Assembly: GCA_041651685.1 (NCBI GenBank)
Contig: JBAZIU010000001.1
Coordinates: forward strand, 308,414 to 372,413
From: Minisyncoccota bacterium
Lineage (GTDB): Bacteria; Patescibacteriota; Minisyncoccia; Minisyncoccales; Minisyncoccaceae
Direction: 5' to 3'
DNA: 64,000 nt
Shown here: piece after piece, positions 3,711 through 62,710 of the stretch
Position numbering within the stretch: position 1 is the first letter of the stretch
Layout: every line of letters starts with the position of its first letter
Program-made: the position numbers and the translations under genes
The notes under the pieces: generated by a model
The model's input: only the letters and a program-made list of their open reading frames with translations
Databases searched by the model: none
Told to the model about the DNA's origin: nothing

Positions 3711-3723
3711 AGTTTATTTATTA

Positions 3724-4302: not shown

Positions 4303-4321
4303 ATGCTTTTATTATAATACA

Positions 4322-5200: not shown

Positions 5201-5210
5201 ATGTTTTTTA

Positions 5211-6092: not shown

Positions 6093-6097
6093 ATATT

Positions 6098-6976: not shown

Positions 6977-7007
6977 ATTTTAAAAAGTTATGACTTCTTT
7001 TTTTGAA

Positions 7008-9518: not shown

Positions 9519-10082
9519 TTACCACTTGGCTTTGTGCAACCCTAAGTTATACCCAACTCTATTGCATAAAATATGTATCAAAAATGTCAAGACAAAGAGA
9601 GTTATCCAGAATTCCAAAGAAAGGCGAACTAACGGCTGGATAAAGATAAATGCTCCGATGACGTAATTGGTTTGGTCAAAAGGGATGAAAGCAACTCCGG
9701 GCCTTAATCGCAATCTTCTTTTAAGAAAGGCGAAACCGATATCCCCTGCTATTATTCCGATTGATAACAGTAACCCCAAGGCCCAGCCGTTTATGCTATT
9801 AATGTCCAGCTCGATGGTTTGGTAGAACGAAAGATTATAATAGTTATGAATAAAGATGAATAACGGAGTCAAAAAAGTGCAAAGGATGATTTCACAAATC
9901 ACCCCCCTCCAAGTTTTGTGGCTGCCGAAAACAGGCATTCCGTTTATTGTCCTTCCCCCGTCAATAGGCTTATTCAAACCATTCAAAATATTAAAAGTGT
10001 TGGCTAAAGGAGGAGAAGCGTTGGCTAACAGCGCTGGCATGAAGAAATATATAACCGATAGTATATATAGGTAGTTAATCAC
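9519..10082 (-). CDS. CarS/DUF46-like CTP-dependent CDP-alcohol (CDP-archaeol synthase family) membrane enzyme
   Basis: 187 aa, GTG start; NKPIDGGRTINGMPVFGSHKTWRG, GDIGFAFLKRRLRLRPG, PFDQTNY and the C-terminal YNLGLHKAKW follow the CarS block order as I recall it. Confidence 0.6.
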   Translation of the reverse strand: MINYLYILSVIYFFMPALLANASPPLANTFNILNGLNKPIDGGRTINGMPVFGSHKTWRGVICEIILCTFLTPLFIFIHNYYNLSFYQTIELDINSINGWALGLLLSIGIIAGDIGFAFLKRRLRLRPGVAFIPFDQTNYVIGAFIFIQPLVRLSLEFWITLFVLTFLIHILCNRVGYNLGLHKAKW

Positions 10083-15794: not shown

Positions 15795-15823
15795 TTGACT
15801 ATAGCTTATAAAATTGAGATAAT
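15795..15823 (+). promoter_or_regulatory. Sigma70-type promoter candidate (TTGACT-17-GATAAT) for the surface-protein operon
   Basis: TTGACT 15795-15800, 17-nt spacer, GATAAT 15818-15823. The same TTGACT-17-TAT-type pattern recurs at 34562 and 43332. Confidence 0.55.
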
Positions 15824-15851
15824 AAATTCAATAAAATCAACAAACATATTC

Positions 15852-18800: not shown

Positions 18801-19739
18801 AGTAATTGTACAATTAAAGTAGCCGATGCTTCAAATAATAACAGCAACACCTTAACCGTTAATTCTTTTACCATTGCTTCGCATGTATCCACAGTATATT
18901 CCAACGGTGTTTTTTCCTGTTTTGTTTCCGGTGATTGCGGTACCGGAACAACTATTTTGAAATTGTCTGATTATATGGGCGGCCATGCCGAACTGTCCAG
19001 CGGAAGTGTTTACGAATACAAAGTTTGTTGTAGCGGAACAGGAATATCTAATTCATGTTCTGGTGGTTCGACTGTTTTGAGATTATCCGCTTCTACCGAC
19101 GCTCACGTGGAACAAAACAACAGAAGCAACAGTGCATATAATTCAAATAGCGTCTGTATCTCCGGAACAACCGGAATGACTTGCAGCTATGCAAGCAGCT
19201 GTTCTTCTCTCGGTTCTAACTATGTTTGTTTGGCATCGATTTCCGGAGACACCAATGCCCATGTTGCCGAGTGCGGTGTTTATTCGACTCAAGTTTGCTG
19301 CCAGACATCTGTTCCCACCAATTCGTGTATTGCAAAAATATCCGCTGTTCCATCGGTGGATAAGGCGGGAAGCGTTCAACTATGTTCCGATGCTGATATT
19401 ACCAACTCTTCCGACCCTTGTTATTCCACCTGCTGGACGGGAACGGGAACACCTGTTGTGACTGATTCCGATTGGAAATGCAGTACCTGCAAAGATACAA
19501 GTAACAATACTATTCCTTGCTTTAATTCGGGAGCCACCTATAGCTGGACCTTATCGGGCGGTCATTCATCTTCTTCCGATTACACGATTACCTCGGGCGG
19601 CTTATCCAGTGCCAATCTAAATATTAATTTTATCGTTGCCGACAAGACGAGAAAAGCGACTTTAAGTATTAATAGCAATCTTTGCAATGCGACAACTGGT
19701 GCCTTGTCGCCGGTATGGAAGGAGGTATCGCCATTTTAA
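15852..19739 (+). CDS. Giant membrane-anchored surface protein: 2x DUF2341 + LamG-like modules, Gly-rich domain, Ig-like domain, Cys-rich repeats
   Basis: Start moved to ATG 15852 (MPQIFKDKRFVILFSAILFLIIGGF, signal anchor) downstream of the promoter. WSYRKPITV...LRFTSSNGSTELSYWIES...IVWVKVP...IYMYYG and FSYRTPIMI...ISFTD...YPYWIES...IWVKVD...IYMYYGN are DUF2341-type; FFDDFNG/FFDDFTG...VRKY are LamG-like; YLVVGGGGAGG...GGSGIVIVKY is the Gly-rich domain. Confidence 0.8.
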   Translation: MPQIFKDKRFVILFSAILFLIIGGFCFWNVNFNNDVSAAGESWLTGWSYRKPITVTSTSAATDYQVKLTVSYIASKMNADFSDLRFTSSNGSTELSYWIESYTASTSAIVWVKVPSLASGANTIYMYYGKSSVATTSNGTNTFIFFDDFNGTLSKWMSVGSNSQCSPSTNSIGGGVFTTSNNYGSANTVGLTSASPLSVTDNFIVGTKFKMMPACTYADVRFFLNVKASTQAAINGSCIFYREGSTMYNRLYVDYNTSSYTSVSSLADNTYYKTEISYYGGNGKINLYTSDGTLLGTNSGTIPNGGNYISVGNGGHNYGSVDWLYVRKYVSSEPTISFGAEGEPPYTFSYRTPIMINNTPNSSTLTNYQILVTVDTASLVSAGKLQSDCDDISFTDNSTSYNSGDWTNKYPYWIESGCNTPTTKIWVKVDSIAALSYKSIYMYYGNLSATIASSGTNTFVFFDDFTGTTINTSKWIKTDSGGYISQNGVLTISNGTATWGQTEMHTVSDFNRADGLVVQGKYKSTMVRGASYTDTTMLWIKDSGTGTNYTDYIYALYPYESSGAAFAMYEDGNSRGTATGTFTANTQYNIRQIIKSAGALTQISTDGGDTWTDSYNSTYSTETPFKVGFTHYQGGDVIIDNVIVRKYTSTEPTVTVINESLDGCSATGGVITKISGYCIHTFISSGTFYPNSIASVEYLVVGGGGAGGREASTAGSGGGAGGLLTSTGLAITPGSSITVTVGAGGVDGGGVAGTNGGNSVFSTITATGGGGGSYYSGADGGSGGGSGPGGTAGGTGTQNNNPAGIGFGHDGGLGASNGGGGGGGGGAAGGNASSGVGGSGGAGISSSITGTATYYAGGGGGSGSSTAGSGGSGIGGAGNIGNGNGGNGVANTGSGGGGARIGYIVGSGGSGIVIVKYLIDSTSPVIAQVTAVPSPTSDTTPDYTFSSTEAGTITYGGDCSSSTTSAVSGNNTITFNILAEGTHSNCTIKVADASNNNSNTLTVNSFTIASHVSTVYSNGVFSCFVSGDCGTGTTILKLSDYMGGHAELSSGSVYEYKVCCSGTGISNSCSGGSTVLRLSASTDAHVEQNNRSNSAYNSNSVCISGTTGMTCSYASSCSSLGSNYVCLASISGDTNAHVAECGVYSTQVCCQTSVPTNSCIAKISAVPSVDKAGSVQLCSDADITNSSDPCYSTCWTGTGTPVVTDSDWKCSTCKDTSNNTIPCFNSGATYSWTLSGGHSSSSDYTITSGGLSSANLNINFIVADKTRKATLSINSNLCNATTGALSPVWKEVSPF

Positions 19740-20161: not shown

Positions 20162-21325
20162 ATGAATAAACAAAAATATCTAATTATTTTTATAGTTTTA
20201 TTCCTCGGTTTAGGTTTTTGTATCTACCAATATTTGGAAACATTCAAAACAGAAGTTGCTTCTGCAACTTCAACCGTTCCCAATCCGGGACACCTTTGGA
20301 GTTCCATGGAATGCAATTCCGATACTTTGTGCGTTGATACGGTCAACAACAGATTGGGAATAGGGACGGCGAGTCCGGCGGCAAAGATAGACATAGTTGG
20401 TAGCTTACGACTGGCATCATCAAGTACATATAAGAGATTTATCAATGTAGCATCGTATGAAGCTCAGGGATTCACTAAAACTGGTACCATAGTTATTAAA
20501 GTTGGACGCACGTCTACGCATTTTATGTCAAAAATTAGAATTTCTGGTTGGTCATATACTAAATCTTGGGACGTAACGGTTTCTGGCTACGCCCAGCCGA
20601 CACAGTGGTATCATACGGGAAATGTTGTTATTACTGGTAATCCTCCGTTTAGTGCATCTGATGTTAGGTTAATAACAGACGCTTCAAGTAATCAATATAT
20701 TCTTCTGGGCAAGACGACAACTTCTCACAATTATTACACGATGATTGGTGTCGATGCCGAGGAAACATATAATAATGCTTTGAATTCCGCCGGATGGACT
20801 ATTGATATAACCACAACTGAGCCAGTTGCGGCCTCTACTGTTACCCCGGTCGTGTCTTTGTTCGGCGGAACCTCGGTGATTCCCGGATATCTCGGTATTG
20901 GTACAGCAACTCCCGGTTATGCCTTAACCGTCGCCGGAACCGCCTGGGTCACCTCCGGTTCTTGGTCCGGCTCTGATGCAAGATGGAAAAAGAACGTTTC
21001 TACTCTTTCAACAACATCCTCTCTTGATAAAATATTAGCTTTAAATCCGGTTAACTATGAATGGAAAACAGACGAATATCCGGAAATGAAGTTCTCAAAG
21101 GATGCCCAACTCGGCTTCATCGCTCAGGATGTGGAAAACATCATCCCCGAAGTCGTCACCACCGATAACAACGGATACAAGGGAATATCATACGAAAAGA
21201 TAGTTCCCGTCTTAACCAGTGCTGTTCAGGAGCAGCAAAAGGAGATAAAGAATCTTTCAGATGAGAACAAGTCGTTGAAAGAGCTTGTTTGTTTGGACCA
21301 TCCATTGGCCGATACTTGCAAATAA
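20162..21325 (+). CDS. Tail-fibre-like surface protein with a C-terminal Peptidase_S74 intramolecular chaperone domain (copy A)
   Basis: 387 aa; N-terminal TM; SDARWKKNVSTLSTTSSLDKILALNPVNYEWK...LGFIAQDVENIIPEVV...ISYEKIVPVLTSAVQEQQKEI matches the endosialidase-chaperone (S74) signature. Confidence 0.85.
   Translation: MNKQKYLIIFIVLFLGLGFCIYQYLETFKTEVASATSTVPNPGHLWSSMECNSDTLCVDTVNNRLGIGTASPAAKIDIVGSLRLASSSTYKRFINVASYEAQGFTKTGTIVIKVGRTSTHFMSKIRISGWSYTKSWDVTVSGYAQPTQWYHTGNVVITGNPPFSASDVRLITDASSNQYILLGKTTTSHNYYTMIGVDAEETYNNALNSAGWTIDITTTEPVAASTVTPVVSLFGGTSVIPGYLGIGTATPGYALTVAGTAWVTSGSWSGSDARWKKNVSTLSTTSSLDKILALNPVNYEWKTDEYPEMKFSKDAQLGFIAQDVENIIPEVVTTDNNGYKGISYEKIVPVLTSAVQEQQKEIKNLSDENKSLKELVCLDHPLADTCK
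20225..20378 (+). repeat. Dispersed repeat, N-terminal module of S74 copy A (pairs with 58139-58292)
   Basis: By-eye alignment: only a handful of substitutions over ~150 nt; the encoded YQYLETFKTEVASATSTVPNPGHLWSSMECNSDTLCVDT.NNRLGIGTASP is identical except for one residue. Confidence 0.85.
20924..21247 (+). repeat. Dispersed repeat, C-terminal S74 module of copy A (pairs with 58754-59077)
   Basis: By-eye alignment: mostly synonymous differences over ~320 nt; 108 aa with about 5 substitutions. Confidence 0.85.
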
Positions 21326-38652: not shown

Positions 38653-39174
38653 ATGAACGAAGGGTTCTTAAATCCCCAACAGATTCTTAAGAATATTCCG
38701 TTGAAGGAAGACATGATTGCCTGTGATTTCGGTTCGGGCTCGGGAGGATGGGCGATTCCCTTGGCCCACGAACTCAAGGCCGGAATGGTCTATGCCATCG
38801 ATGTTTTGGAAAGTGCAGTTTCCGCTTTAGATGGAAAGATTTCCGCCCAGCAGTTATTTAACATTAAAACGATATCGGGTGACATAGAAAAGGGAGTGAA
38901 GATAAAAGACGGGTATTTTGATTTAATATTAATGACCAACCTCTTGTTTCAAGTTGAGAACAGAGATTTTGTCATGCAGGAAGCGAAGAGAGTTTTAAAG
39001 CCGAACGGAATGGTTTTGATTATCGACTGGAAGAAAGATGCTCCGGTCGGTTCTAAAGAGGGAAGACTGTCCATTGAAGAGGCTGTTTTGTTGGGAGAGA
39101 AAAACGGATTCAAAAAAGAGAAAGAAATTGGTTCGGGTAATTTTCATTGGGGTTTATTATTAAGAAAAATATGA
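38653..39174 (+). CDS. Class I SAM-dependent methyltransferase
   Basis: 173 aa; ACDFGSGSGGWAIPLA motif I; ends in TGA overlapping the next ATG (ATGA). Confidence 0.75.
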   Translation: MNEGFLNPQQILKNIPLKEDMIACDFGSGSGGWAIPLAHELKAGMVYAIDVLESAVSALDGKISAQQLFNIKTISGDIEKGVKIKDGYFDLILMTNLLFQVENRDFVMQEAKRVLKPNGMVLIIDWKKDAPVGSKEGRLSIEEAVLLGEKNGFKKEKEIGSGNFHWGLLLRKI

Positions 39175-40004
39175 AAAAAATATTTATTCTATGTGCGTTA
39201 TCTATAATTTTTTCGGTCGTTTTGCCATTATCAGCAATGGCAGAATCATGTCCTGGTGGTAAATGGGAAGATAACATAACGTCAGATGGTCGTAATTTAG
39301 GAAAATGCGTTTGTTATGTTGCGAGTGAAACATACCCTAATTGTAGTGGTAGTTGTACTAATGGCAGAGTCCTTTCTGCAGGAGAATGTGTTTGTCCTCA
39401 AGCTAACCAATATTGGAATGGAAGTTCTTGTGTTGTTACAACCCATACTGATGCTACAACTAGGAATAATTGCAGTGCTATTGTTTGCGAAGCTCTTTCT
39501 TATTGTAGCGGAAGCAACTGTCAGGGCAGTACAGATAGAGAACAAGGATATTATAGCGATTCTTTAGGCAAGTGCGTTTGTCCTACAGGATACTATAGTA
39601 ACGAAGCTCCGACTGTAGGTGGATCTAGTAGTGGCTCCGGTGTTACTTCTGGTTCAACAGGGAGTGGCTCATCAACTATATCCAGTACTTATACCCCAGG
39701 AAATGTTGGGGGAGGTTCACTTAGCTTACCAACAGTGACCAGCACGGGAGTTTTAACCAATCCCATTACTTCGGGAAGCTTTGCCGATTTACTTAACAGG
39801 ATAATTGATTGGATTTTGAATATCGCTTTGGTCTTGGCTCCATTGGTTATTGTCTACGGAGGGTTCATTTATATGACTGCGGCAGGGGATACCGGTAAGG
39901 TTACCCAAGGAAAGAATATCGTCCTTTATGCCGTCATCGGATTCATTGTGGCGCTTCTGGCCAAGTCCCTTATTGGCATTTTTACAGATTTAGTGGTAAA
40001 ATAG
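39171..40004 (+). CDS. Secreted Cys-rich protein with a C-terminal TrbC/VirB2-like (T4SS-pilin-like) hairpin
   Basis: Start trimmed to ATG 39171 (MKKIFILCALSIIFSVVLPLSAMA). ~20 Cys in C-x-C / C-x3-C patterns, Ser/Gly linker, then LAPLVIVYGGFIYMTAAGDTGKVTQGKNIVLYAVIGFIVALLAKSLI. Confidence 0.65.
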   Translation: MKKIFILCALSIIFSVVLPLSAMAESCPGGKWEDNITSDGRNLGKCVCYVASETYPNCSGSCTNGRVLSAGECVCPQANQYWNGSSCVVTTHTDATTRNNCSAIVCEALSYCSGSNCQGSTDREQGYYSDSLGKCVCPTGYYSNEAPTVGGSSSGSGVTSGSTGSGSSTISSTYTPGNVGGGSLSLPTVTSTGVLTNPITSGSFADLLNRIIDWILNIALVLAPLVIVYGGFIYMTAAGDTGKVTQGKNIVLYAVIGFIVALLAKSLIGIFTDLVVK

Positions 40005-40027
40005 TTTTAAATTAAAATAACAAAAAT

Positions 40028-40360
40028 ATGAAAAAGCAAACACTAATTCTTATCTGTCTCTGGGTAGCCGTGTTGTTTGTCCCGTTTATGTCTTTGGCTG
40101 ATGTTGTTGATTACGATGAAGATAACGCCATTGCGCAGACGATAACCAACATTACCAAGTGGGTTACTAATATATGTCTGGGCATAGCCATTCTGATGTA
40201 TGTTATCGGAGGATATTTCTGGGTGATTGATAATGGTAACTTGGAAAGCGTTAAGATGGCCAAGAATATCATTCTGTCGGCAACAATCGGATTGGCCATC
40301 ATCTTAATCGCCAACAGCCTAGTCAGCGTAGTAAAGACATTAGTTGTAACAAATGATTAA
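40028..40360 (+). CDS. TrbC/VirB2-like (T4SS-pilin-like) protein
   Basis: 110 aa; signal peptide, then ILMYVIGGYFWVIDNGNLESVKMAKNIILSATIGLAIILIANSLV. Confidence 0.6.
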   Translation: MKKQTLILICLWVAVLFVPFMSLADVVDYDEDNAIAQTITNITKWVTNICLGIAILMYVIGGYFWVIDNGNLESVKMAKNIILSATIGLAIILIANSLVSVVKTLVVTND

Positions 40361-40394
40361 TAACCATATAAAGGTCGGATAATAATTAACAAAC

Positions 40395-40832
40395 ATGACT
40401 ATGAAGAAAAAAATATTAGCCTTGATTGCCTGCGCAATAGTATTATCGTTTATCGGAACAGGCTATGTTGCCGCTGCAGAAGACAATTTGGATGGTTGCA
40501 GAATTACAAGAACAAGCAGATTGCCCACCACATTGGACTGTGAGACAACGTCAAGCAATGGAACGCTTTACTGTTATTATGATGACGGAGATTGCGGAAT
40601 GTGCTGCTTATTGAACGGAATCTACAACATTACCGATTGGGTATTCGTTGTTTTGATGGCTATTTCATCACTAATGATTATTTGGGGTGCTGTATTATTC
40701 ACCACTTCTTCGGGAGACCCGAAAAAGACAGGCAACGCAAGACAGCTCATCATCTATGCCGCAGTTGGTATTGCCGTAGCTCTATTTTCAAGAGCGGTTC
40801 CTCCGGCAGTCAAGATGATCATCGGAGCTTAA
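40395..40832 (+). CDS. TrbC/VirB2-like (T4SS-pilin-like) protein with a Cys-rich ectodomain
   Basis: 145 aa; signal peptide, 7 Cys, then LMIIWGAVLFTTSSGDPKKTGNARQLIIYAAVGIAVALFSRAV. Confidence 0.65.
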   Translation: MTMKKKILALIACAIVLSFIGTGYVAAAEDNLDGCRITRTSRLPTTLDCETTSSNGTLYCYYDDGDCGMCCLLNGIYNITDWVFVVLMAISSLMIIWGAVLFTTSSGDPKKTGNARQLIIYAAVGIAVALFSRAVPPAVKMIIGA

Positions 40833-45721: not shown

Positions 45722-45763
45722 TTTTGTTGACAAACATCGTTTTAAATGTTATAAGTAACCAAT

Positions 45764-46813
45764 ATGGAATTTGATTACAAAAAAATAACGCAAAATATAT
45801 TGAAAAGCCTTCCGGACAGAACGAAAGCGGTCATCTCTCGCAGATTTTCGTTAAACAAATCCGGCAAGCCGGAAACTCTTGAAGCCATCGGCAAGAGCTA
45901 CAACATTACCAGAGAAAGAGTGAGACAGATTGAGAACGACGGAATGAAGAGAGCCAAGAAGATTTTGGAAAGCACCGAAGTCAAAGATGAGTTTAAGAAA
46001 ATTAAAACATATTTTGAAAAGAAGATTGATTCATGCGGGGGAGTGAGAGAAGAAAAGAAACTTTTGGAAGAAATTGCTTCAATTGAACAGAAAGACAATA
46101 TTTTATTTTTATTGAGCTTGTCCGACTCTTTGGTCAGAGAAAAAGAAGATGATAATTTTCACGCTTTTTGGGCGCTGAACAAAGATTTGGTTTCGGGAGC
46201 CAAGAAAGTTTCCAATGATTTTGTTAAGTCATTGAAAGAGAAGGGAGTTCCGGAAACTTTGGAAAGTTTGTATTCAGAATACAAGAAAAACGGAGGCAAG
46301 GTTTCTTTTGAAGCTTTCTCCTGCTATTTGGAAATCTCCAAAGATATTTTTAAGACTTTGGACGGCAGCAAGGTTGGATTGAAATCATGGCCGGAAGTAA
46401 ATCCGAGAACGGTTAAAGACAAAATCAAATTGATTTTGAAAGAAAAAGAAAAGCCGTTGCACTTTAAAGAAATCGCTGAAATGATTTTTGATTTGAATGA
46501 GACTTTGACTACTGGGAAGAATAAAAGATTGCACCCTCAGACGGTTCACAACGAATTAATCAGAAATACCGACTTCGTTTTGGTGGGCAGGGGATACTAC
46601 GCTTTGAAAGATTGGGGATACAACCCCGGACAGGTTAAGGATGTTATTTATCAGGTTTTGCAGGCTTCCGATAATTCTCTTAATAAAGAAGAAATCGTTA
46701 GCTCGGTTTTGAAGCAAAGGATGGTTAAGGAATCAACAATTCTTTTGAATTTACAGAACAAAAACTTCTTCCTAAAAGATGGAGAAGGAAAGTATAAAGT
46801 TCGAGAAGCATAA
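45764..46813 (+). CDS. Sigma-70 region-4-like HTH fused to a C-terminal HARE-HTH (RNAP delta-like) domain
   Basis: 349 aa; ETLEAIGKSYNITRERVRQIENDGMKRAKK (region 4.2-like); C-terminal LHFKEIAEMI...HPQTVHNELIRNTDFVLVGRGYYALKDWGY (HARE-HTH pattern). Confidence 0.6.
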   Translation: MEFDYKKITQNILKSLPDRTKAVISRRFSLNKSGKPETLEAIGKSYNITRERVRQIENDGMKRAKKILESTEVKDEFKKIKTYFEKKIDSCGGVREEKKLLEEIASIEQKDNILFLLSLSDSLVREKEDDNFHAFWALNKDLVSGAKKVSNDFVKSLKEKGVPETLESLYSEYKKNGGKVSFEAFSCYLEISKDIFKTLDGSKVGLKSWPEVNPRTVKDKIKLILKEKEKPLHFKEIAEMIFDLNETLTTGKNKRLHPQTVHNELIRNTDFVLVGRGYYALKDWGYNPGQVKDVIYQVLQASDNSLNKEEIVSSVLKQRMVKESTILLNLQNKNFFLKDGEGKYKVREA

Positions 46814-46828
46814 GTTTAAAATTAATCA

Positions 46829-48166
46829 ATGCCAGAAGAAATACTGTACGTAATTAAAGGGCTTTCCACTCTTTGGAAAATTAGCGTTCCCTATCTTTTG
46901 GTCTTGAAAACTATTATCGTTCAATTTTGGTGGCTTCCACTGCCTTTTTATTTGAAACATCACATCGATTTCATCTACAATCTTTTTATCGGCGATGATT
47001 GGGATTCTGATAAGATAAGAAAAAGGGTTGTGGTAGAGATAAAGATTCCTCAAGTCATTGTCAGGCCGTTAAGGGCCATGGAAGCGGTTTTCGCTTCTTT
47101 TTGGGGAACGTATGACCCGCCCAGTAGCTGGAAAGAAGGTCATTTCAAAGGGAAAAGAATATTGGGAGCTTCTTTTGAGATAGCCGGAATTGATGGCGTT
47201 CCTCATTTTTTTGTGAGATTGCCGGAAAGCAACAAGAAATTGCTTAAGGCGGTTATCTATTCGCAATACCCCGAAGTGGAAATTATCGATGTTCCCGATT
47301 ATACCAAGCAAGTGCCGCAGGATATTCCCAACAAAGAGTGGGATTTGTGGGGTTGTGATTTTGAGGTTATAAAGTCCGATGTTTATCCGATTAAAACTTA
47401 TGAATCTTTCTATGAAGAAAGACCGGATGTTTTGAGTGAGGAAAAAAGAATAGATCCACTTTCTCCGTTATTTGAAACTATTTCTTTGACAGTCCCTGGT
47501 GAGCAGTTGTGGTTTTCCATTTTTGTAACACCTCGAGGACCCAAGGAAACCGATTTTTTTGACCGAGCCAGAAAAGAAATCGATAAATTGGCGAAGAGAC
47601 CGGAAAAAGCCAAAAGCAATCCCTTGTGGTTAGATTTTTGGAATCTTTTGATACACGGCACAGATCCTTTGGGCGAAGAAGCCAAAGAAGATACATTTCT
47701 TCCTCCCGAAATGAAGTTGACCACCGGAGAAAGGGATGTTGTTGCAGCCATCGAAAGAAAGAAATCAAAAAATGTCTTCCTTTGCTACATCAAATATGTT
47801 TATGTGGCCAAAAGAAAGGTATTTTATAATAGTGCTAAAGGATTCGGAACCAGTTTCTTCTCCCAGTTTGGAACTCAGAATTTAAACAGCACCAAGCCTT
47901 GGAGCATGACCACCACCAAAGTCCATTCGCCGACTTTTTTCCAAGCCAGAAAGCTTTATTTGAGAAAAAGAGATTTGATAGAAAATTACAGAACCAGAGA
48001 CCCGGGATTCGATCCTTTTCCTGTTGAAGGAGCGTGCTATCATTTAAATACCGAAGAATTAGCCACTTTATATCACTTCCCGAGCTATGAAGGTGCTCCG
48101 TCAGCCGCTTTAAAGAGAATGGAAACCAAGAAGGGCGCTCCGCCTTCTCAATTACCAGTGGAATAA
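46829..48166 (+). CDS. Uncharacterised membrane-anchored protein, upstream partner of the VirD4/FtsK-like ATPase
   Basis: 445 aa; hydrophobic N-terminus (ISVPYLLVLKTIIVQFWWLPLPFYL), large soluble domain, C-terminal LNTEELATLYHFP motif; 5-nt gap to the next gene. Confidence 0.6.
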   Translation: MPEEILYVIKGLSTLWKISVPYLLVLKTIIVQFWWLPLPFYLKHHIDFIYNLFIGDDWDSDKIRKRVVVEIKIPQVIVRPLRAMEAVFASFWGTYDPPSSWKEGHFKGKRILGASFEIAGIDGVPHFFVRLPESNKKLLKAVIYSQYPEVEIIDVPDYTKQVPQDIPNKEWDLWGCDFEVIKSDVYPIKTYESFYEERPDVLSEEKRIDPLSPLFETISLTVPGEQLWFSIFVTPRGPKETDFFDRARKEIDKLAKRPEKAKSNPLWLDFWNLLIHGTDPLGEEAKEDTFLPPEMKLTTGERDVVAAIERKKSKNVFLCYIKYVYVAKRKVFYNSAKGFGTSFFSQFGTQNLNSTKPWSMTTTKVHSPTFFQARKLYLRKRDLIENYRTRDPGFDPFPVEGACYHLNTEELATLYHFPSYEGAPSAALKRMETKKGAPPSQLPVE

Positions 48167-48171
48167 TATAT

Positions 48172-49863
48172 ATGGATAAATCAGAAATCATATTTTTCGG
48201 ACAAACGACCTTTAGGGGAGAAATGAAAAGGTTCGGAATCAAAACAGACGACAGAAGGCGTCATATTTATGTCGTCGGTAAAACCGGTATGGGTAAAACC
48301 GAGCTTTTGAAGAATATGGTTATTCAGGATATCAGGAATGGCAACGGAGTCGGCTTTGTCGACCCGCACGGAGAAGCTTCCGAAGAAATATTAAGGTTCG
48401 TTCCCAAGGAAAGAATCAAAGACGTGGTCTATATCAATCCGGCCGATATTGAAAATCCGATTGCTTTTAATATCATGGAAGATGTTGACGCCGAATACAG
48501 GCATCTTATCGCCGGTGGACTGATGGGTGTTTTTAAGAAGATTTGGCCCGACGTCTGGTCTTCTCGAATGGAATACATTCTAAACAATGCCATTTTGGCT
48601 TTGCTCGATATTCCCGGTTCGACTTTATTGGGAGTCAATAGATTATTGTCCGATCCCGAATGGAGAGCGGAAGTGGTTGAAAAAGTTAAAGACCCGGTGG
48701 TCAAATCTTTTTGGTTAAAAGAATTCAGCCGATACAGCCAGAGATACGAAGTCGAAGCCACCGCCGCCATTCAGAATAAAATCGGACAGTTTATTTCTTC
48801 TCCTCTGGTCAGGAATATTATCGGACAGGAAAAGTCAACGATAGATATCAGGAAGATTATGGATGAAAAAAAGATTCTGATTATGAATCTTAGTAAAGGA
48901 AGAATAGGGGAGGACTCTTCGAGGTTGTTGGGAGCACTATTGGTTACCAAGCTGCAATTGGCCGCCATGTCGAGAGTTGATACGGCCGAAAAAGAAAGAA
49001 ATGATTTTATCTTGTATATTGATGAGTTCCAAAATTTTTCAACTGATTCTTTCGCCAATATTTTATCCGAAGCCAGAAAATACAGACTGTCTTTGGTCTT
49101 GGCCCATCAGTATATAAAGCAAATGGAGGAGAAGGTTATGGACGCGGTGTTCGGCAACGTGGGAACGATGATTGTTTTTAGGGTGGGAGCCGAAGACGGA
49201 GAGTTTTTGGAAAAAGAGTTTTCTCCCGAATTCTATACCCATGATTTGGTTAATCTTCCCAAACAGAATATCTATGTTAAATTGATGATTGACGGTTTGA
49301 CTTCCCGACCTTTTTCTGCGGAAACTCTTCCTCCGGCAATACCGACCGAAGATGACCACGAGAAAGAGATTATTGAATTCTCAAGGAAGACATACGGAAC
49401 CTTAAGGCCGATTGTTGAAGAAAAGATATCCAAATACGCAGGAGTTGAAGATCTTCCCAAGATGGAGGCAAGGGAAAACAGGCCGCAAAAAGATTTGTAT
49501 GATGCCGAGTGCGGCAAATGTGGAAAGAAGGTCAAAGTTCCTTTTAAGCCGGACGGAAAAAGGCCGGTCTATTGCAAGAGTTGTTTAGGCAAGAATGGGG
49601 GAGAGCAGTCCAAGAGTGCTTTTGAAAAGCTTCCTTTCATTTCTTTAGAAGAAACGGCCAAGGAGTTTACCCCGGTTCAGAAAGAAAGGAAGAAAGAAAA
49701 TATTGTTAAACCGGAAATAATTGATTCAAATAAATCCAAAAAGAAAATTGACTTTGAAGGATTGAGGAGTGTGATAAAAGAAGCAAAAAAGGAGAAAGAA
49801 GAAAAGGAGGAAGCTCCGAAAGATAAAGGAACCATCAATCCTGGAGAAGTGATTAAGTTTTAA
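48172..49863 (+). CDS. VirD4/TraD/FtsK-HerA-like P-loop ATPase with a C-terminal CxxC-x17-CxxC zinc ribbon and Lys/Glu-rich tail
   Basis: 563 aa; Walker A VVGKTGMGKTE, Walker B FILYIDEFQNF, LVLAHQY; CGKCGKKVKVPFKPDGKRPVYCKSC; no TM segment. Confidence 0.7.
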   Translation: MDKSEIIFFGQTTFRGEMKRFGIKTDDRRRHIYVVGKTGMGKTELLKNMVIQDIRNGNGVGFVDPHGEASEEILRFVPKERIKDVVYINPADIENPIAFNIMEDVDAEYRHLIAGGLMGVFKKIWPDVWSSRMEYILNNAILALLDIPGSTLLGVNRLLSDPEWRAEVVEKVKDPVVKSFWLKEFSRYSQRYEVEATAAIQNKIGQFISSPLVRNIIGQEKSTIDIRKIMDEKKILIMNLSKGRIGEDSSRLLGALLVTKLQLAAMSRVDTAEKERNDFILYIDEFQNFSTDSFANILSEARKYRLSLVLAHQYIKQMEEKVMDAVFGNVGTMIVFRVGAEDGEFLEKEFSPEFYTHDLVNLPKQNIYVKLMIDGLTSRPFSAETLPPAIPTEDDHEKEIIEFSRKTYGTLRPIVEEKISKYAGVEDLPKMEARENRPQKDLYDAECGKCGKKVKVPFKPDGKRPVYCKSCLGKNGGEQSKSAFEKLPFISLEETAKEFTPVQKERKKENIVKPEIIDSNKSKKKIDFEGLRSVIKEAKKEKEEKEEAPKDKGTINPGEVIKF

Positions 49864-49906: not shown

Positions 49907-49978
49907 GGCCCCATCGTCTAACGGTTAGGACACCAGATTTTCAATCTGGTAATCAGGGTTCGATTCCCTGTGGGGTCA
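49907..49978 (+). tRNA. tRNA-Glu (anticodon TTC)
   Basis: Acceptor GGCCCCA/TGGGGTC (G2-U71), anticodon stem CCAGA/TCTGG with loop TTTTCAA, T arm CAGGG-TTCGATT-CCCTG. Confidence 0.9.
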
Positions 49979-49980
49979 CA

Positions 49981-58075: not shown

Positions 58076-59134
58076 ATGAAAAAACAAACAATATTTACAA
58101 TCTTCGCAGTGGTATTATTGGGATTAGCTTTCAGTCTCTATCAATATTTAGAAACCTTTAAAACAGAAGTTGCTTCTGCCACTTCAACCGTTCCTAATCC
58201 GGGACACCTCTGGAGTTCCATGGAATGCAATTCCGATACTTTGTGCGTTGATACGACCAACAATAGATTGGGGATAGGGACGGCGAGTCCGGGAACTAAG
58301 TTGGATGTTAACGGAGGCATAAGAGCAATTGGTTCAGGGTTTACGGGAGCCACAGGAAAAAGCGCCGAGATCCAATTATATAGCAATACAGCTTATTTCC
58401 AGGGATATGATAGAACGGGGGATGCCTTTATACCAACCTATTTCCGTGGCAATCCAATTATTTTAGAAGGTGGTAATGTCGGCATCGGGACGACAGTGCC
58501 AAAAACTCAATTACATTTAGGTACAGAGCTCCCAGTTTTATCTATTGGAGCTATTACCACTTACGGTGGTTCCAGCGGCAACGCTATGGCTGCTATTACA
58601 AGTACTCTTACTGCTGGAGGTCAAACTGGCGGTTCATTAAATTTCCAAACTAACCCCTGGGGAGTCATTGATAGTTCTTATGTCCCTGTTACTATGATGA
58701 CTATTCTTCCACGGGGCAATGTCGGCATCGGCACTACTTCTCCTGGCTATAATCTAACCGTTGCCGGCACCGCCTGGGTCACCTCCGGTTCTTGGTCCGG
58801 CTCTGATGCACGATGGAAGAAGAACATTTCAACTCTTTCAACAGCATCTTCTCTTGATAAAATATTAGCTTTAAATTCGGTTAACTATGAATGGAAAACA
58901 GACGAATACCCGGAAATGAAATTCTCGAAAGACGCCCAACTCGGCTTTATCGCTCAGGACGTGGAAAACATCATCCCCGAAGTGGTCACTACCGATAACA
59001 ACGGATATAAGGGAATATCATATGAAAAGATAGTTCCCGTTTTGACCAGTGCCATACAGGAGCAGCAAAAGGAGATAGAGCAATTAAAAACAATGGTCTG
59101 TTCGGACCATCCTTTAGCGGAGATTTGTAAATAG
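58076..59134 (+). CDS. Tail-fibre-like surface protein with a C-terminal Peptidase_S74 intramolecular chaperone domain (copy B)
   Basis: 352 aa; same N-terminal and S74 modules as 20162-21325, different central ~150-180 aa. Confidence 0.85.
   Translation: MKKQTIFTIFAVVLLGLAFSLYQYLETFKTEVASATSTVPNPGHLWSSMECNSDTLCVDTTNNRLGIGTASPGTKLDVNGGIRAIGSGFTGATGKSAEIQLYSNTAYFQGYDRTGDAFIPTYFRGNPIILEGGNVGIGTTVPKTQLHLGTELPVLSIGAITTYGGSSGNAMAAITSTLTAGGQTGGSLNFQTNPWGVIDSSYVPVTMMTILPRGNVGIGTTSPGYNLTVAGTAWVTSGSWSGSDARWKKNISTLSTASSLDKILALNSVNYEWKTDEYPEMKFSKDAQLGFIAQDVENIIPEVVTTDNNGYKGISYEKIVPVLTSAIQEQQKEIEQLKTMVCSDHPLAEICK
58139..58292 (+). repeat. Dispersed repeat, N-terminal module of S74 copy B (pairs with 20225-20378)
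   Basis: See the entry for 20225-20378. Confidence 0.85.
58754..59077 (+). repeat. Dispersed repeat, S74 module of copy B (pairs with 20924-21247)
   Basis: See the entry for 20924-21247. Confidence 0.85.
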
Positions 59135-59624: not shown

Positions 59625-60332
59625 CTATACAAAATAATGCTGTTGGTCAACTTCTCTTGCGACGGTTAGCCCCCAGACTTCTTTGGCTCCGGACTGTTTT
59701 AATGCCTTGGCGCATTCTTCCATAGTCGATCCGGTGGTATAGACATCGTCCAGGAGAAGTATAATTTTGTCTTTAATTATTTCTCCTTTTTCGATTTTAA
59801 AACAATCTTTAATATTATTAATTCTTTCTTCTCTTTTCAGCTCCATCTGCGGAGCGGTTTCCCTTATTTTTATCAGCATATTGGATAAGAGGGGAATGCC
59901 GGTGGATTCGGAGATTGTTTTTCCCATCTCTTCCGATTGATTGAATCCTCTCCTCCTTTTCTTTTTGTCAGTCATGGGAATCGGGATGATGATAAAAGAC
60001 TTATTTATTTCCATTCCGATAGCTTGGAGGTGGGTTAAAATAAGTATTGATAACGGTTGGCAGAGGTCTTTGATGTATCCGTATTTGAATTTATGAATGG
60101 CTTCTTTTAGTATTTTGTTTTTAAAAGAAGCGGCCGAGAATATTTTATCCAGATATCTGTTTTTACATTTATCGCATTTGTCTCTTTTTTCCAGTTTTTC
60201 GCAAAGGCAGTATTGATAGGGGTTTATCTCTATCAAAGACAAACAATCTTCGCAGAGATAGGGCCCTTCTTTTTTGCAATTAATGCACTTTTTAGGAAAA
60301 ATCAAGTCCCAGATTTGTTTTAGATATTCCAT
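59625..60332 (-). CDS. comFC: ComF-family phosphoribosyltransferase-like competence protein (ComFC)
   Basis: 235 aa; N-terminal 4-Cys zinc finger (CINCKKEGPYLCEDC), PRT motif IILLLDDVYTTGST. Confidence 0.8.
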   Translation of the reverse strand: MEYLKQIWDLIFPKKCINCKKEGPYLCEDCLSLIEINPYQYCLCEKLEKRDKCDKCKNRYLDKIFSAASFKNKILKEAIHKFKYGYIKDLCQPLSILILTHLQAIGMEINKSFIIIPIPMTDKKKRRRGFNQSEEMGKTISESTGIPLLSNMLIKIRETAPQMELKREERINNIKDCFKIEKGEIIKDKIILLLDDVYTTGSTMEECAKALKQSGAKEVWGLTVAREVDQQHYFV

Positions 60333-60368
60333 TGCTTTTTAAAAGGTGTTATTATATCAGTATAGCAT

Positions 60369-60396
60369 TTGTCAATGCATTTAAAAATGCTATAAT
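60369..60396 (+). promoter_or_regulatory. Extended -10 promoter candidate for the pil operon (TTGTCA-16-TGcTATAAT)
   Basis: TTGTCA 60369-60374; TGCTATAAT ending at 60396; 10 nt before the pilM ATG. Confidence 0.5.
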
Positions 60397-60406
60397 ATTT
60401 TTAATT

Positions 60407-61483
60407 ATGATTTTCGCCAAAAGAAAAAGTCAAAAAAGCCTGGGCGTCGATATCGGAACCAAGGTTATCCGCGTGGTTGAGATTTCGGGAAAGAAAGGAA
60501 AATTGGCCTTGGAAAATTACGGGGAGGTGAATCTTGACGTGGCCTGCAAAGAATTCTTCAGGTCTTTTGACAAGAAGAATCTTAATCCGTCGGTTGATAA
60601 TATTTCAGCGGCCCTCAAGGCTATAATCGAAGAAACGGGGATTAAAACCAAGAAGGTTGTTTTTTCTCTTCCTGATTTTGCCACCTTTTTTACCACTTTT
60701 GAACTCCCTCCGATGAGCAGTAAAGAAATAGCCAATGCTGTCGGATTCGAAGCGAGGAAATATATTCCCTTGCCTCTATCGGAATTAGTTTTAGACTGGC
60801 AATTGATGAGCAAGGAACCTTCGCCGAAAGAAAACAGCAAGATTTTGGTTATGGCTGTTCCGAAGATTATCGTCGAACAATACAAGACCATTGCCGAGCA
60901 GGCCGGACTGGAACTGACCGCTCTTGAGGCCGAAGCCATGGCTTTAAAAAGAGCGGTGGTTAATGAAAACGATCCAACTTCTTGTTTATTGGAAATAGGA
61001 TTTCAATCGACGAATATAAATATCGTTGAAGACGGTTTTATGAAAATGAGTTTTAGTTTTGACATTGCCGGAAAAGATTTGACTTTTAGCATTTCCGAAA
61101 CATTGAATATCTCGACCGGCGACGCTGAAATAATAAAAAAGAAGCAGGGATTATTGGTTAACGAGGAGGGAAACATTTCTCATATTTTGACACCGATTCT
61201 TTCGGTTATCTCCGAGAGGACGAGAAAGGTCATTAAAGATTTTGAGTCAAAGGAAGGGAAGACAGTGGAAAAGGTAGTTATCGCCGGAGGGACTTCGCTT
61301 TTGCCGGGAATATTGGAATACTTTACCGAGAGTTTGAACCAAGACGAAGCACAGCCAAAGATAGTGGAAATTGCCAAGCCTTTCGTTAAAGTCGCTTATC
61401 CTCCTATTTTAGATAAAAAAATGGAAGAAATTAACCCGACCTATGCCATAGCGCTGGGCGAGGCCTTGAGAAAGTTTGAATAA
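60407..61483 (+). CDS. pilM: Type IV pilus assembly protein PilM (actin-like ATPase fold)
   Basis: Start trimmed to ATG 60407. SLGVDIGTKVIRVVEI, PDFATFFTTFELP, IAGGTSLLPGI. Confidence 0.85.
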   Translation: MIFAKRKSQKSLGVDIGTKVIRVVEISGKKGKLALENYGEVNLDVACKEFFRSFDKKNLNPSVDNISAALKAIIEETGIKTKKVVFSLPDFATFFTTFELPPMSSKEIANAVGFEARKYIPLPLSELVLDWQLMSKEPSPKENSKILVMAVPKIIVEQYKTIAEQAGLELTALEAEAMALKRAVVNENDPTSCLLEIGFQSTNINIVEDGFMKMSFSFDIAGKDLTFSISETLNISTGDAEIIKKKQGLLVNEEGNISHILTPILSVISERTRKVIKDFESKEGKTVEKVVIAGGTSLLPGILEYFTESLNQDEAQPKIVEIAKPFVKVAYPPILDKKMEEINPTYAIALGEALRKFE

Positions 61484-61518
61484 GAAAGTATAATAGACTT
61501 CAAGGATAAAAAACATTT

Positions 61519-62043
61519 ATGGCTATTGAAATAGCACCGGTTAAAAAAGAAACTTCAAATAAGGAAAATATCGCCTTGCTTTTTTCGATATTGATTTTAA
61601 TTGTTTGTTTTGGATTATACTTTTATTTTTCGCAAGTCCTTCTGGCCCAAAAAGAAACAGAAACGATTAATCTCAATACGCAGTTGTCGGCCCTGGGCCA
61701 AGAAGATATCAAAACCAAGGAAGCAGAATTGGCTTTGGCCGGAGTGTATATCAATGACTTTAAGATTCTTTTTGAAAATAATCCAAAGGCATCCAATTTT
61801 TTTGGAACCTTCCAGAAATGGGCCCACCCCAAGGTGGTTTATTCCGGATTCAGTTTTGACGTCTCCGGGAAGATTAGCATGGCCGGAAGAACCAGCGGAT
61901 TTCAAAATGTGATGCAGCAGCTGGCTCTTCTTAATCAAGAGGGTTCGATTCAAAGTTATCAGATTTCCAATGTCGGGATGACGGAGAATGGGGGAGTCAC
62001 CTTTAATTTAGATTTGGTTTTGAAACCGGAAGTTTTAAAATAA
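61519..62043 (+). CDS. pilN: PilN-like bitopic pilus assembly protein
   Basis: 174 aa; single TM, coiled coil, ferredoxin-like C-terminus; position after pilM. Confidence 0.55.
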   Translation: MAIEIAPVKKETSNKENIALLFSILILIVCFGLYFYFSQVLLAQKETETINLNTQLSALGQEDIKTKEAELALAGVYINDFKILFENNPKASNFFGTFQKWAHPKVVYSGFSFDVSGKISMAGRTSGFQNVMQQLALLNQEGSIQSYQISNVGMTENGGVTFNLDLVLKPEVLK

Positions 62044-62044
62044 T

Positions 62045-62710
62045 ATGGAAAAAAGAAATACAAAAATTTTAGCGATTGCCGGCCTTATTCTCTTACTTTC
62101 CATCGGAGTGGTTTATTTTCTGGTCTTGCCCGCGTATAAGCAGATGGGATTGCAGGACGACCAAATTAGGCAGATAAAGGAACAGATTGAAGCCAGAAAT
62201 AATTATTATTCCACCGTTGAAGCGAAAGTAAAGGCACTGGAAGATTCGGGATGGGCCGAGAAGAAGAAAACCATTGAGGTTAACTTCACATCTTCTCCTT
62301 TTTTCGTTCCCAAAATGAATGTTTTTTTCAGAACCATGGTTTCGGGCAGCGGAATGACCCTTTCGGGAATAACAGCATCTCCCGCCGTTTCGGTCAAAAC
62401 TGTTGCCCAGACACCTACCAAAAGCGAGGAAACGGTTCAGGTAAGCTCAGGTTCTTCGACAGCAGACTCTCAACAAACCGTATCGACTACTTATTTTGAT
62501 AGGTTGCAGGGCCCGGTTAAGAAGGTAACTTTCAATCTTTCCGTTTTAGGAACTTATAATTCTTTCAAAAAATTATTATCCGACTTGGAAACGCAGACAA
62601 GAATAGTTACGGTTAAGAGCGTTTCGGTTTCTTCTTCTCTGCAAGGAGCGGGAAAGAGCGCTTCCAATTTATCGACTTTTAATTTAGTAGTAGATACTTA
62701 TTCTTATTAA
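62045..62710 (+). CDS. pilO: PilO-like bitopic pilus assembly protein
   Basis: 221 aa; single TM, coiled coil (QIRQIKEQIEARNNYYSTVEAKVKALE); 1-nt gap after the pilN-like gene. Confidence 0.55.
   Translation: MEKRNTKILAIAGLILLLSIGVVYFLVLPAYKQMGLQDDQIRQIKEQIEARNNYYSTVEAKVKALEDSGWAEKKKTIEVNFTSSPFFVPKMNVFFRTMVSGSGMTLSGITASPAVSVKTVAQTPTKSEETVQVSSGSSTADSQQTVSTTYFDRLQGPVKKVTFNLSVLGTYNSFKKLLSDLETQTRIVTVKSVSVSSSLQGAGKSASNLSTFNLVVDTYSY

Follow-up and report, generated by a model that had tools for sequence, protein, structure and literature searches.

The 64-kb stretch of Minisyncoccota contig JBAZIU010000001.1 considered here (the window) contains three adjacent genes on the + strand, genes 1–3 (Table 1), and all three open reading frames (ORFs) listed in an earlier note on this DNA, which was made from the letters alone, are found. 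Gene 1 encodes a protein with two helix-turn-helix (HTH) domains of different families; gene 2 encodes a DUF8128 protein with a hydrophobic N-terminus; and gene 3, starting 5 nt after the stop codon of gene 2, encodes a VirD4/TrwB-type ATPase devoid of transmembrane (TM) segments. By sequence comparison, genes 2 and 3 are the two halves of one ATPase, split by gene fission. The next long ORF called after gene 3 overlaps the gene for tRNA-Glu, its true start is therefore later, and the module ends at 49863. In the loci of relatives the place of this tRNA is occupied by pgk, hence the conserved block ends with gene 3.

Table 1. Coordinates of the three-gene module and its features (positions in the window).
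Feature	Position	Strand	Description and basis
Gene 1	45764-46813	+	349 aa; Sigma70_r4 + HARE-HTH (Pfam)
Gene 2	46829-48166	+	445 aa; N-terminal half of the split ATPase (by sequence comparison), DUF8128
Gene 3	48172-49863	+	563 aa; TM-less VirD4/TrwB-type ATPase + zinc ribbon + charged tail
Promoter-like element, sigma-70-type	45727-45755	+	TTGACA 45727-45732, 17 nt, TATAAG 45750-45755; sequence read
Gene 3 ATPase domain, aa 1-425	48172-49446	+	Pfam, NCBIfam, AlphaFold2 (AF2), Foldseek, hhalign
Gene 3 zinc ribbon, aa 441-474	49492-49593	+	PF23477, TIGR04272
Gene 3 Lys/Glu-rich tail, aa 475-563	49594-49863	+	Alignment consensus, low AF2 confidence
tRNA-Glu(UUC)	49907-49979	+	ARAGORN; Rfam 67 bits; downstream module boundary

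Gene 3 had been read as a TM-less VirD4-like ATPase with Walker motifs, a zinc ribbon and a charged tail, and each of these elements is present. In Pfam, residues 25–339 match TrwB_AAD_bind (37.4 bits, cut-off 20.5), residues 281–346 match TraG-D_C, and T4SS-DNA_transf is matched at 20.5 bits (cut-off 20.1); the match to DUF87 (23.6 bits) is barely over its cut-off, that to TIGR00929 is weak (E 0.006), and AAA_10, P-loop_TraG, and CagE_TrbE_VirB give no Pfam match. Walker A (GKTGMGKT, residues 36–43, nt 48277–48300) and Walker B (ILYIDE, residues 280–285, nt 49009–49026) are invariant in 35 homologues. In the AF2 model (pLDDT 68; core ordered, tail disordered), helices at approximately residues 107–217 make up an all-alpha domain inserted between the two motifs. 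No 19-residue window of gene 3 exceeds 1.4 on the Kyte–Doolittle (KD) scale, and none exceeds 1.51 in gene 3 and 34 homologues.

Comparison of this model with the PDB by Foldseek retrieves type IV coupling proteins (T4CPs), namely DotL (6sz9, E 1.2e-10) followed by Cagβ (8dol) and TrwB (1e9s, 1gki, 1gl6), with E-values from 1e-10 to 1e-7; HerA chains rank under these, and VirB4 chains do not appear in the top 50. The profile alignment agrees: hhalign gives TrwB a probability of 92.5% (E 4.9e-7, 260 columns), and the alignment is unbroken between the two Walker motifs, the all-alpha domain included (TrwB residues 117–392), versus 2.6% for TrwK; alignments with TrsE, phage G gp155, and a patescibacterial VirB4 are confined to Walker A/P-loop. 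The fold of gene 3 is of the T4CP type, not of the VirB4 type. A grouping with HerA or other non-translocase clades was looked for; the ATPase groups with DotL, Cagβ, and TrwB, not with HerA or VirB4.

Gene 2 turned out differently from its first description as a membrane protein of no nameable family that replaces the TM domain of a T4CP. Its product is mostly a soluble ~380-aa domain of the family DUF8128 (PF26449), and its relatives number over 2,500: a protein search yields 1,866, all from Paceibacteria-type genomes, and the family profile retrieves 2,570 representatives at E <= 1e-3 from a 50%-identity cluster library. Precomputed PF26449 matches are seen on many gene 2 homologues, down to 42% identity, as well as on longer proteins to which gene 2 aligns and in which the domain is fused to the ATPase; the assignment of gene 2 rests on these annotations and this alignment, as a local Pfam scan gives no match for gene 2 or four homologues. 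A literature search for PF26449 or DUF8128 found no paper that mentions either. No clear function at odds with a coupling-protein role, which would have told against the proposal of the earlier note, emerged for gene 2.

The protein consists of two N-terminal helices (residues 3–59, nt 46835–47005), the DUF8128 domain (residues ~65–420), and a C-terminal conserved linker, ...EELATLYHFP...KKGAPPSQLPVE. The N-terminus is hydrophobic, as had been noted, and rich in aromatic residues, with a KD maximum of 1.61 at residues 18–36; these helices are a probable membrane anchor. This segment is hydrophobic (KD >= 1.6) in 27 of 39 split-type proteins, in 63 of the 92 fused ones from Patescibacteria, and in no phage protein checked; given such patchiness, membrane tethering appears to be frequent but accessory, and the conserved core, as far as sequences tell, is DUF8128 plus the ATPase.

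In the AF2 model of gene 2 (pLDDT 79.9, pTM 0.76), an alpha/beta domain comes after the two helices. The top 12 Foldseek matches of this model in the PDB are all TrwK/VirB4 chains of the R388 type IV secretion system (T4SS), with E-values from 4e-4 to 6e-3, probabilities of 0.90–0.99, and TM-scores of 0.28–0.34. In BFVD the model matches phage G gp156 (1e-16), the VirB4-like gp155 (2.4e-7), other Bacillus phage proteins, and a "component of type IV transporter system" (5e-3); proteins of similar fold include S5MSQ0 (phage JL) and U5Q0H6 (phage Slash). At the sequence level, the gene 2 profile finds nothing in the PDB at E <= 1, and Pfam CagE_TrbE_VirB does not match gene 2. Profiles of 39 and 128 DUF8128 sequences were compared by hhalign with TrwK/VirB4, TrwM/VirB3, and TrwB (R388 reference NC_028464), with pSK41 TrsD, TrsE, and TrsK, and with phage G gp155 and the VirB4 halves, the PrgI-like protein, and a 431-aa protein of locus L088; the probability is at most 0.7% in all cases. 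The likeness to the N-terminal domain of VirB4 is thus confined to the fold, and is suggestive rather than established.

That genes 2 and 3 might be a split coupling protein was proposed in the earlier note, and single-chain homologues indeed exist. The concatenated products align with the 937-aa protein P0421 of Berkelbacteria in a single BLASTP high-scoring segment pair (HSP; E 0, 39.5% identity, 840 columns), which matches residues 65–886 to residues 46–822 of P0421 and crosses the junction (445/446). Alignment through the junction is also obtained with P0427 and P0483, and in tblastn genes 2 and 3 match contiguous halves of the fused genes of L086–L088. Because the concatenation aligns continuously to single-chain proteins, the pair is a product of true gene fission, and the fused homologues provide Rosetta-stone evidence for the two products acting as a single functional unit. 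The break site lies in the linker between ...KKGxPPxxLPV and ...ITFFGxTxFRG...FGIKxxDRRRHxY-GKTGxGK, so that the fission in the Paceibacteria-type clade falls precisely at the boundary of DUF8128 and ATPase.

The single-chain layout is an optional N-terminal TM helix, DUF8128, and a VirD4-type ATPase, i.e., PF26449 + PF10412/PF12696/PF02534 (DUF8128 + TrwB_AAD_bind/TraG-D_C/T4SS-DNA_transf). It is found in other Patescibacteria classes (Berkelbacteria, Falkowbacteria, Saccharibacteria, Gottesmanbacteria, and others) and, as DUF8128 + ATPase, in jumbo phages similar to phage G. Gene 3 matches PHROG 5156 (E 4.9e-63) at profile positions 406–807 of 824 only. Within phage G gp156 (825 aa), the C-terminal half matches gene 3 (tblastn, E 2e-34) and residues 48–314 of the N-terminal half match the gene 2 profile (hhalign, 95.8%, E 7.5e-9). 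A tblastn search of 50,697 phage genomes with gene 2 gives no match; the phage link came through gene 3, and the profile and fold comparisons confirmed it. Among the matches listed for the gp156 query are ~90 patescibacterial proteins of 730–990 aa, and ~28 phage-G-like homologues from metagenomes are among the matches listed as well. In Bacillus phage G (JN638751.1, L084 1196-5338), gp155 (549 aa) stands directly before gp156, which is annotated as "MsbA-like".

Most members of the split clade have acquired a ribbon and a charged tail on the ATPase half. The ribbon of gene 3 (CxxC-x17-CxxC) matches PF23477 (zf_Tbcl_2, E 2.5e-13) and TIGR04272 (E 6.7e-14), and its cysteines 447, 450, 468, and 471 are invariant in 35 close homologues. 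What the earlier note saw here holds for these proteins, although the ribbon is not universal: it occurs in 55 of 70 split-type homologues and is missing from the more distant lineages. By analogy with small proteins of Methanosarcina mazei, in which this domain family binds zinc (PMC12704099), we infer that the ribbon of gene 3 does so too. The tail comprises ~90 aa after the ribbon, ~38% of them charged, and most of it is modeled with pLDDT <50. It nevertheless contains short motifs, ISLEE (~aa 490–494), a helix IDFEGL...IKEAK (~aa 525–543), and a conserved C-terminal peptide INPGEVIKF; S491, L492, L531, P557, G558, and F563 are near-invariant, and the terminus PG(E/Q)x(I/V)KF recurs in closer relatives with or without the ribbon. 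The C-terminal tails of TraD and DotL serve as adaptor or substrate sites, and by analogy the ribbon, tail, and C-terminal peptide of gene 3 are probable candidates for such sites.

Conservation of gene order was assessed in 80 species-representative genomes with a gene 2 relative and two further loci, at least 514 genomes matching gene 2; counts refer to loci with enough flank. Gene 3 directly follows gene 2 in 73 of 75 loci, as was anticipated for a functional pair; in 74 of 75 gene 1 directly precedes gene 2, and 57 of 61 have secF upstream of the module. The median gaps are 22.5 nt between genes 1 and 2 and 16.5 nt between genes 2 and 3. The median identity of gene 3 is 63.5%, compared with 52% for SecD; SecF and gene 1 both stand at 42% and gene 2 at 40%. 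The ATPase is therefore under unusually strong constraint. Genes 1–3 are a tightly spaced, vertically inherited unit next to secDF. The order secD–secF–gene 1–gene 2–gene 3 is also carried by three contigs labeled Pacearchaeota archaeon, Bdellovibrionales, and Gammaproteobacteria (L009, L073, L075), most likely mislabeled or mis-binned Patescibacteria.

The promoter-like element upstream of gene 1 ends with TATAAG, 8 nt from the ATG. In 35 of 63 related loci the secF–gene 1 spacer contains a match of at least 10/12 to a TTGACA-N16-18-TATAAT-like pattern, versus 1 of 63 stretches of the same length inside gene 2, and TTGACA-N17-TATAAx in these loci ends ~8–10 nt before the gene 1 start. The element is a putative promoter. 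Given its distance from the ATG, the mRNA of gene 1 would be leaderless or nearly so, which suggests a separate transcription unit of genes 1–3 with such a first gene.

In gene 1, both domains that had been named, a sigma region 4 HTH and a HARE-HTH, pass the Pfam cut-offs: Sigma70_r4 at residues 13–63 (nt 45800–45952, E 3.5e-14) and the HARE-HTH winged helix at residues 215–284 (nt 46406–46615, E 1.6e-9). They are separated by a weakly conserved linker and followed by a conserved non-acidic C-terminal extension; both are present in 20 of 20 aligned homologues. Residues 7–74 match region 4 of RpoD, SigA, and RpoS chains in the PDB (E 1.7e-16 to 1e-11). Sigma region 2 or any other sigma region is found neither in gene 1 nor in these 20 homologues, where Sigma70_r4 is the only one, and NCBIfam sigma models align over their C-terminal ~70 positions only, far under cut-offs. 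A sigma-70 initiation factor is hence rejected: with regions 1–3 missing, the protein cannot initiate alone. The delta subunit (RpoE) of RNA polymerase (RNAP) is rejected as well (TIGR04567, 25.3 bits, cut-off 42); unlike delta, gene 1 has its HARE-HTH in the C-terminal half and no acidic tail. In the literature searched, no description of a sigma region 4 + HARE-HTH combination was found. Most likely, gene 1 is a DNA- or RNAP-binding accessory factor or an operon regulator. Its region 4, similar to that of primary sigma factors, is of the domain type that reads TTGACA, and its own promoter-like element has TTGACA.

The proposed link of gene 1 to the ATPase stands in part: in the split clade the synteny is of the operon type, but no such gene is seen beside fused forms elsewhere. 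The association is specific to the split clade, and could reflect function or merely inherited operon structure. In Saccharibacteria- and Falkowbacteria-type genomes, a small gene conserved within each class (114–118 or 159 aa) lies 2–7 nt upstream of the fused gene (L086 6651-6995, L091 6641-6997, L087 6519-6998, L090 1063-1542). These 114–159-aa products match no Pfam family and have no likeness to gene 1 or DUF8128; being unrelated to gene 1, they argue against a phylum-wide third partner, and may be class-specific partners.

The window is core chromosome of Patescibacteria (Paceibacteria/Minisyncoccales-type), with nusA, tig, clpP, rny, infB, ftsH, gyrA, tsaD, secD, secF, recG, and 25 tRNA genes; the base composition of the module is even with its surroundings, and integrase, repeats, and relaxase were not found in the window. 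Other genes here include a 1,314-aa protein with DUF2341 and a glycine-rich domain (15795-19739, +) and two proteins with Peptidase_S74, the intramolecular chaperone of tail fibres and endosialidases (20162-21325 and 58076-59134, both +), all three probably surface or adhesin proteins. A lipid-scavenging cluster (2396-8792 and 9519-10082, both –) contains two plsY genes, three DegV-family genes, and a Dak2–FakA–DegV fusion (593 aa), with a CDP-archaeol-synthase-like (CarS-like) gene near it. At the right end of the window (60332-62710, +) there are type IV pilus genes, an unassigned 174-aa ORF separating pilM (383 aa) from a pilO-like gene (221 aa); the previously noticed com/pil cluster corresponds to these.

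The pilin-like genes of the earlier note can be specified as three tandem genes for VirB2-type T4SS pilins (PF18895) at 39147-40832 (+), ~6 kb upstream of the module and directly after gyrA and a methyltransferase gene. The PF18895 E-values of their products are 1.9e-13 (285 aa, extended at the N-terminus by a Cys-rich stretch), 5e-10 (110 aa), and 1e-9 (145 aa). Among fused relatives, T4SS clusters adjoin the gene in two contigs and not in four others: in two independent contigs, L088 and that of P0488, PrgI-like, TraC-like, VirB4, and Peptidase_M23 genes are the neighbors of a divergently oriented fused gene of the TM-less form. The phage G counterpart has the VirB4-like gp155 directly in front of it. 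Of 3,035 Patescibacteria genomes, 2,918 have VirD4-like homologues, and most of these are at a distance from virB4 (PMC12102498). Epibiotic growth requires the patescibacterial T4SS in the only species in which this was tested (PMC10633639; PMC12857230), and in a Tn-seq (transposon sequencing) study the essential cluster has no recognisable coupling protein or relaxase (PMC10633639).

We consider the module to encode, with a probability of about 60%, a two-chain, membrane-tethered, ring-forming ATPase similar to coupling proteins that works for the chromosomal T4SS and whose substrate is bound by the tail and perhaps also by gene 1. In this scheme the hydrophobic N-terminal helices of gene 2 would tether the complex to the membrane, and its cytoplasmic DUF8128 domain would hold the gene 3 ATPase as it does within the fused proteins. 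Gene 3 would form a ring of the FtsK/HerA superfamily, hexameric by analogy with TrwB, whose ATP hydrolysis would pass DNA or protein on to the patescibacterial T4SS, which has no relaxase; docking on the inner-membrane complex of this T4SS would probably be through the VirB4-like N-terminal domain. The ribbon, charged tail, and C-terminal peptide would probably contact substrate or adaptor, as in TraD and DotL, and gene 1 would act in its most likely capacity of accessory factor or regulator.

Several observations weigh against this reading. In tblastn of the window with VirB4, T4CP, PrgI-like, and TrwC relaxase queries, only gene 3 is retrieved, and no VirB6-like gene was detected with these queries. 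Fused genes of the Saccharibacteria and Falkowbacteria types sit among housekeeping genes. Of 5,713 patescibacterial T4CP homologues, 148 are near virB4, and such homologues are found in 2,918 genomes versus 2,417 with VirB4, which fits a T4SS-independent role; these counts are for T4CP homologues generally and are not established as counts of the DUF8128 family (PMC12102498). In Southlakia epibionticum the homologue is reported to be non-essential while T4SS genes are essential (PMC12102498). The hydrophobic segment of gene 2 is borderline (KD 1.61) and missing in many fused relatives and all phage forms; the likeness of DUF8128 to the VirB4 N-terminal domain is at the fold level only (TM-score ~0.3), with no profile signal; and the contact between the two chains, ring formation, and the role of gene 1 are proposals drawn from sequence, models, and analogy.

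The serious rival, though less likely on balance, is a translocase independent of the T4SS, exapted as a membrane-associated motor for DNA (or RNA or protein) in housekeeping; exaptation was raised by the authors of PMC12102498. Its task could be DNA uptake or processing alongside competence and type IV pili, or chromosome handling, with the ribbon and gene 1 binding nucleic acid. It agrees with the core-gene context (secDF, tsaD, recG, and gyrA in the window; pgk, dnaX, or gyrB beside relatives), with a fixed chromosomal site particular to each class, with the conservation of gene 3 above that of SecD, with the gain of ribbon and Lys/Glu-rich tail in the split clade, and with the above excess of T4CP homologues over VirB4 and the rarity of virB4 near them. 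However, T4CP genes of bona fide systems are often encoded away from virB4 (PMC12102498), T4SS clusters do adjoin fused relatives in two contigs, the window has its pilin genes 6 kb off, and the non-essential homologue of S. epibionticum speaks against an indispensable housekeeping role, at least in its class; nor does positive evidence favor any specific alternative process. It is very improbable that the pair is a split VirB4-like assembly ATPase, i.e., a second VirB4 paralogue energising T4SS or pilus assembly rather than receiving substrates, with gene 2 equivalent to VirB3 or the VirB4 N-terminal domain and gene 3 to its ATPase domain. The Foldseek matches of gene 2 to TrwK/VirB4 in the PDB and to gp155 and the "type IV transporter" component in BFVD would suit it, as would the combined size (445 + ~425 aa), the layout of N-terminal domain plus ATPase, and the comparable split of TrsD + TrsE in Gram-positive systems (PMC12102498); but the ATPase itself decides otherwise in fold (no VirB4 chain in the top 50), in profile (92.5% to TrwB, 2.6% to TrwK, Walker A only for the others), and in Pfam families, and DUF8128 gives no profile signal to VirB4 or TrsD.

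Whether gene 1 belongs to the functional unit is a separate matter; that it is a mere neighbor, a general RNAP-associated factor co-transcribed with the pair by historical accident, is quite conceivable at somewhat less than even odds. Both of its domains are known RNAP- or DNA-associated modules; no relative of it is found by tblastn or hhalign beside the fused forms of L086–L088 and L091, nor Sigma70_r4 or HARE-HTH in the Pfam listings beside the fused gene of L090 and the P0488 contig, their place being taken by small genes unrelated to it or by genes of a T4SS; in L064 it sits 4 kb from gene 2; and long housekeeping syntenies are kept in patescibacterial genomes. On the other hand, adjacency is preserved in 74 of 75 genomes at ~30–77% identity with a short median gap, the conserved promoter-like element precedes gene 1 and not gene 2, and DNA-binding accessory genes directly upstream of T4CP genes are typical of conjugative DNA transfer (Dtr) operons; in R388 the gene upstream of trwB is that of the DNA-binding accessory protein TrwA. 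Hardly credible, finally, is an ATPase of a mobile element or anti-phage system, be it a HerA/FtsK-type defence motor similar to mad8 of MADS or a remnant of a prophage or an integrative and conjugative element (ICE). Gene 3 matches PADLOC mad8 (E 3.2e-17) and, weaker, HerA models, besides phrog_5156 and HerA chains in Foldseek, and has homologues in jumbo phages; yet genes 1 and 2 have no PADLOC match save a weak one to the sigma region, no nuclease, SIR2, or methylase partner is present, the site between secDF and a tRNA gene or pgk is fixed across ~75 species, base composition equals that of the surroundings, the window has no detected integrase, repeats, or relaxase, and T4CP chains outrank HerA. 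The mad8 and HerA matches are therefore dismissed as generic P-loop similarity, given the lack of partner genes and the core-chromosome context; a literature search on the domain content of mad8 gave nothing useful. A HerA-type system proper is rejected from the short N-terminus of gene 3, an upstream gene that is DUF8128 and not a nuclease, and the lack of a PADLOC partner.

The existence of a T4CP homologue family in Patescibacteria is known already, its VirD4-like members having been tallied phylum-wide but not analysed in detail (PMC12102498); for the DUF8128 N-terminal domain, its VirB4-like fold, the fission, the zinc ribbon, and the operon partner, no description was found in the literature searched. 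The patescibacterial VirD4-like protein has an architecture of its own, a DUF8128 domain with a putative VirB4-like fold preceding the ATPase. In the largest class it appears as two co-translated chains which have gained the ribbon and tail motifs and share an operon with a two-HTH protein. This gives context to an uncharacterised Pfam family. It also offers starting points for finding the ligands of the motor, namely chains that can be studied apart, a ribbon that can be removed, the C-terminal peptide, and in gene 1 a possible DNA-binding partner. If confirmed, the VirB4-like N-terminal domain would bear on the divergence of coupling proteins and VirB4. A bolder reading, to which we give a small chance, is that DUF8128–VirD4-like ATPases are a hitherto unrecognised third lineage of T4SS-type motors linking VirB4 and VirD4 in evolution, the split, ribbon-bearing Paceibacteria form being with gene 1 a dedicated nucleic-acid handling machine. 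A VirB4-like N-terminal domain would then have been kept on a coupling-protein ATPase, and the module would be either what recruits substrates to the essential, relaxase-less T4SS, where such a part is missing, or a mover of host-derived DNA or RNA.

Compared with known systems, gene 3 shares with the canonical T4CPs (VirD4, TrwB, TraD, DotL, Cagβ) the RecA-like domain, both Walker motifs, and the inserted all-alpha domain, and its tail is similar in place to the C-terminal extension that is the adaptor or substrate site of TraD and DotL. Canonical T4CPs have an N-terminal TM domain on the ATPase chain, which gene 3 lacks, and no DUF8128, whereas here ~380 aa of DUF8128 precede the ATPase on a separate gene. 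They are encoded or coupled with a T4SS (virB4) and usually a relaxase; gene 3, with a ribbon after the ATPase, stands in a housekeeping context with no relaxase or virB4 match in the window, although some fused DUF8128 relatives lie beside T4SS genes. The closest counterparts are the fused proteins P0421 (Berkelbacteria), P0427 (Falkowbacteria), P0448 (Saccharibacteria), and gp156, colinear homologues of gene 2 + gene 3; these are single polypeptides, mostly without CxxC-x17-CxxC, with no sigma region 4/HARE-HTH gene upstream, and, in the phage versions, with no hydrophobic N-terminus. VirB4 resembles the pair in its layout of N-terminal domain plus ATPase, the gene 2 model matches the folds of TrwK/VirB4 and gp155, and in TrsD + TrsE of Gram-positive T4SSs the N-terminal domain is likewise on a separate gene (PMC12102498); however, TrwK, TrsD, and TrsE show no profile similarity to DUF8128, and the partner ATPase of gene 2 is of the T4CP type, not the VirB4 type. 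HerA translocases combine a HAS-barrel with a partner nuclease or effector (NurA, SIR2, DUF4297), while the partner of gene 3 is DUF8128. As for gene 1, primary sigma factors resemble it in region 4 and differ in having regions 1–3, and the N-terminal domain of the RNAP delta subunit shares the HARE-HTH fold with residues 215–284, but in delta this domain comes first and is followed by a long acidic tail.

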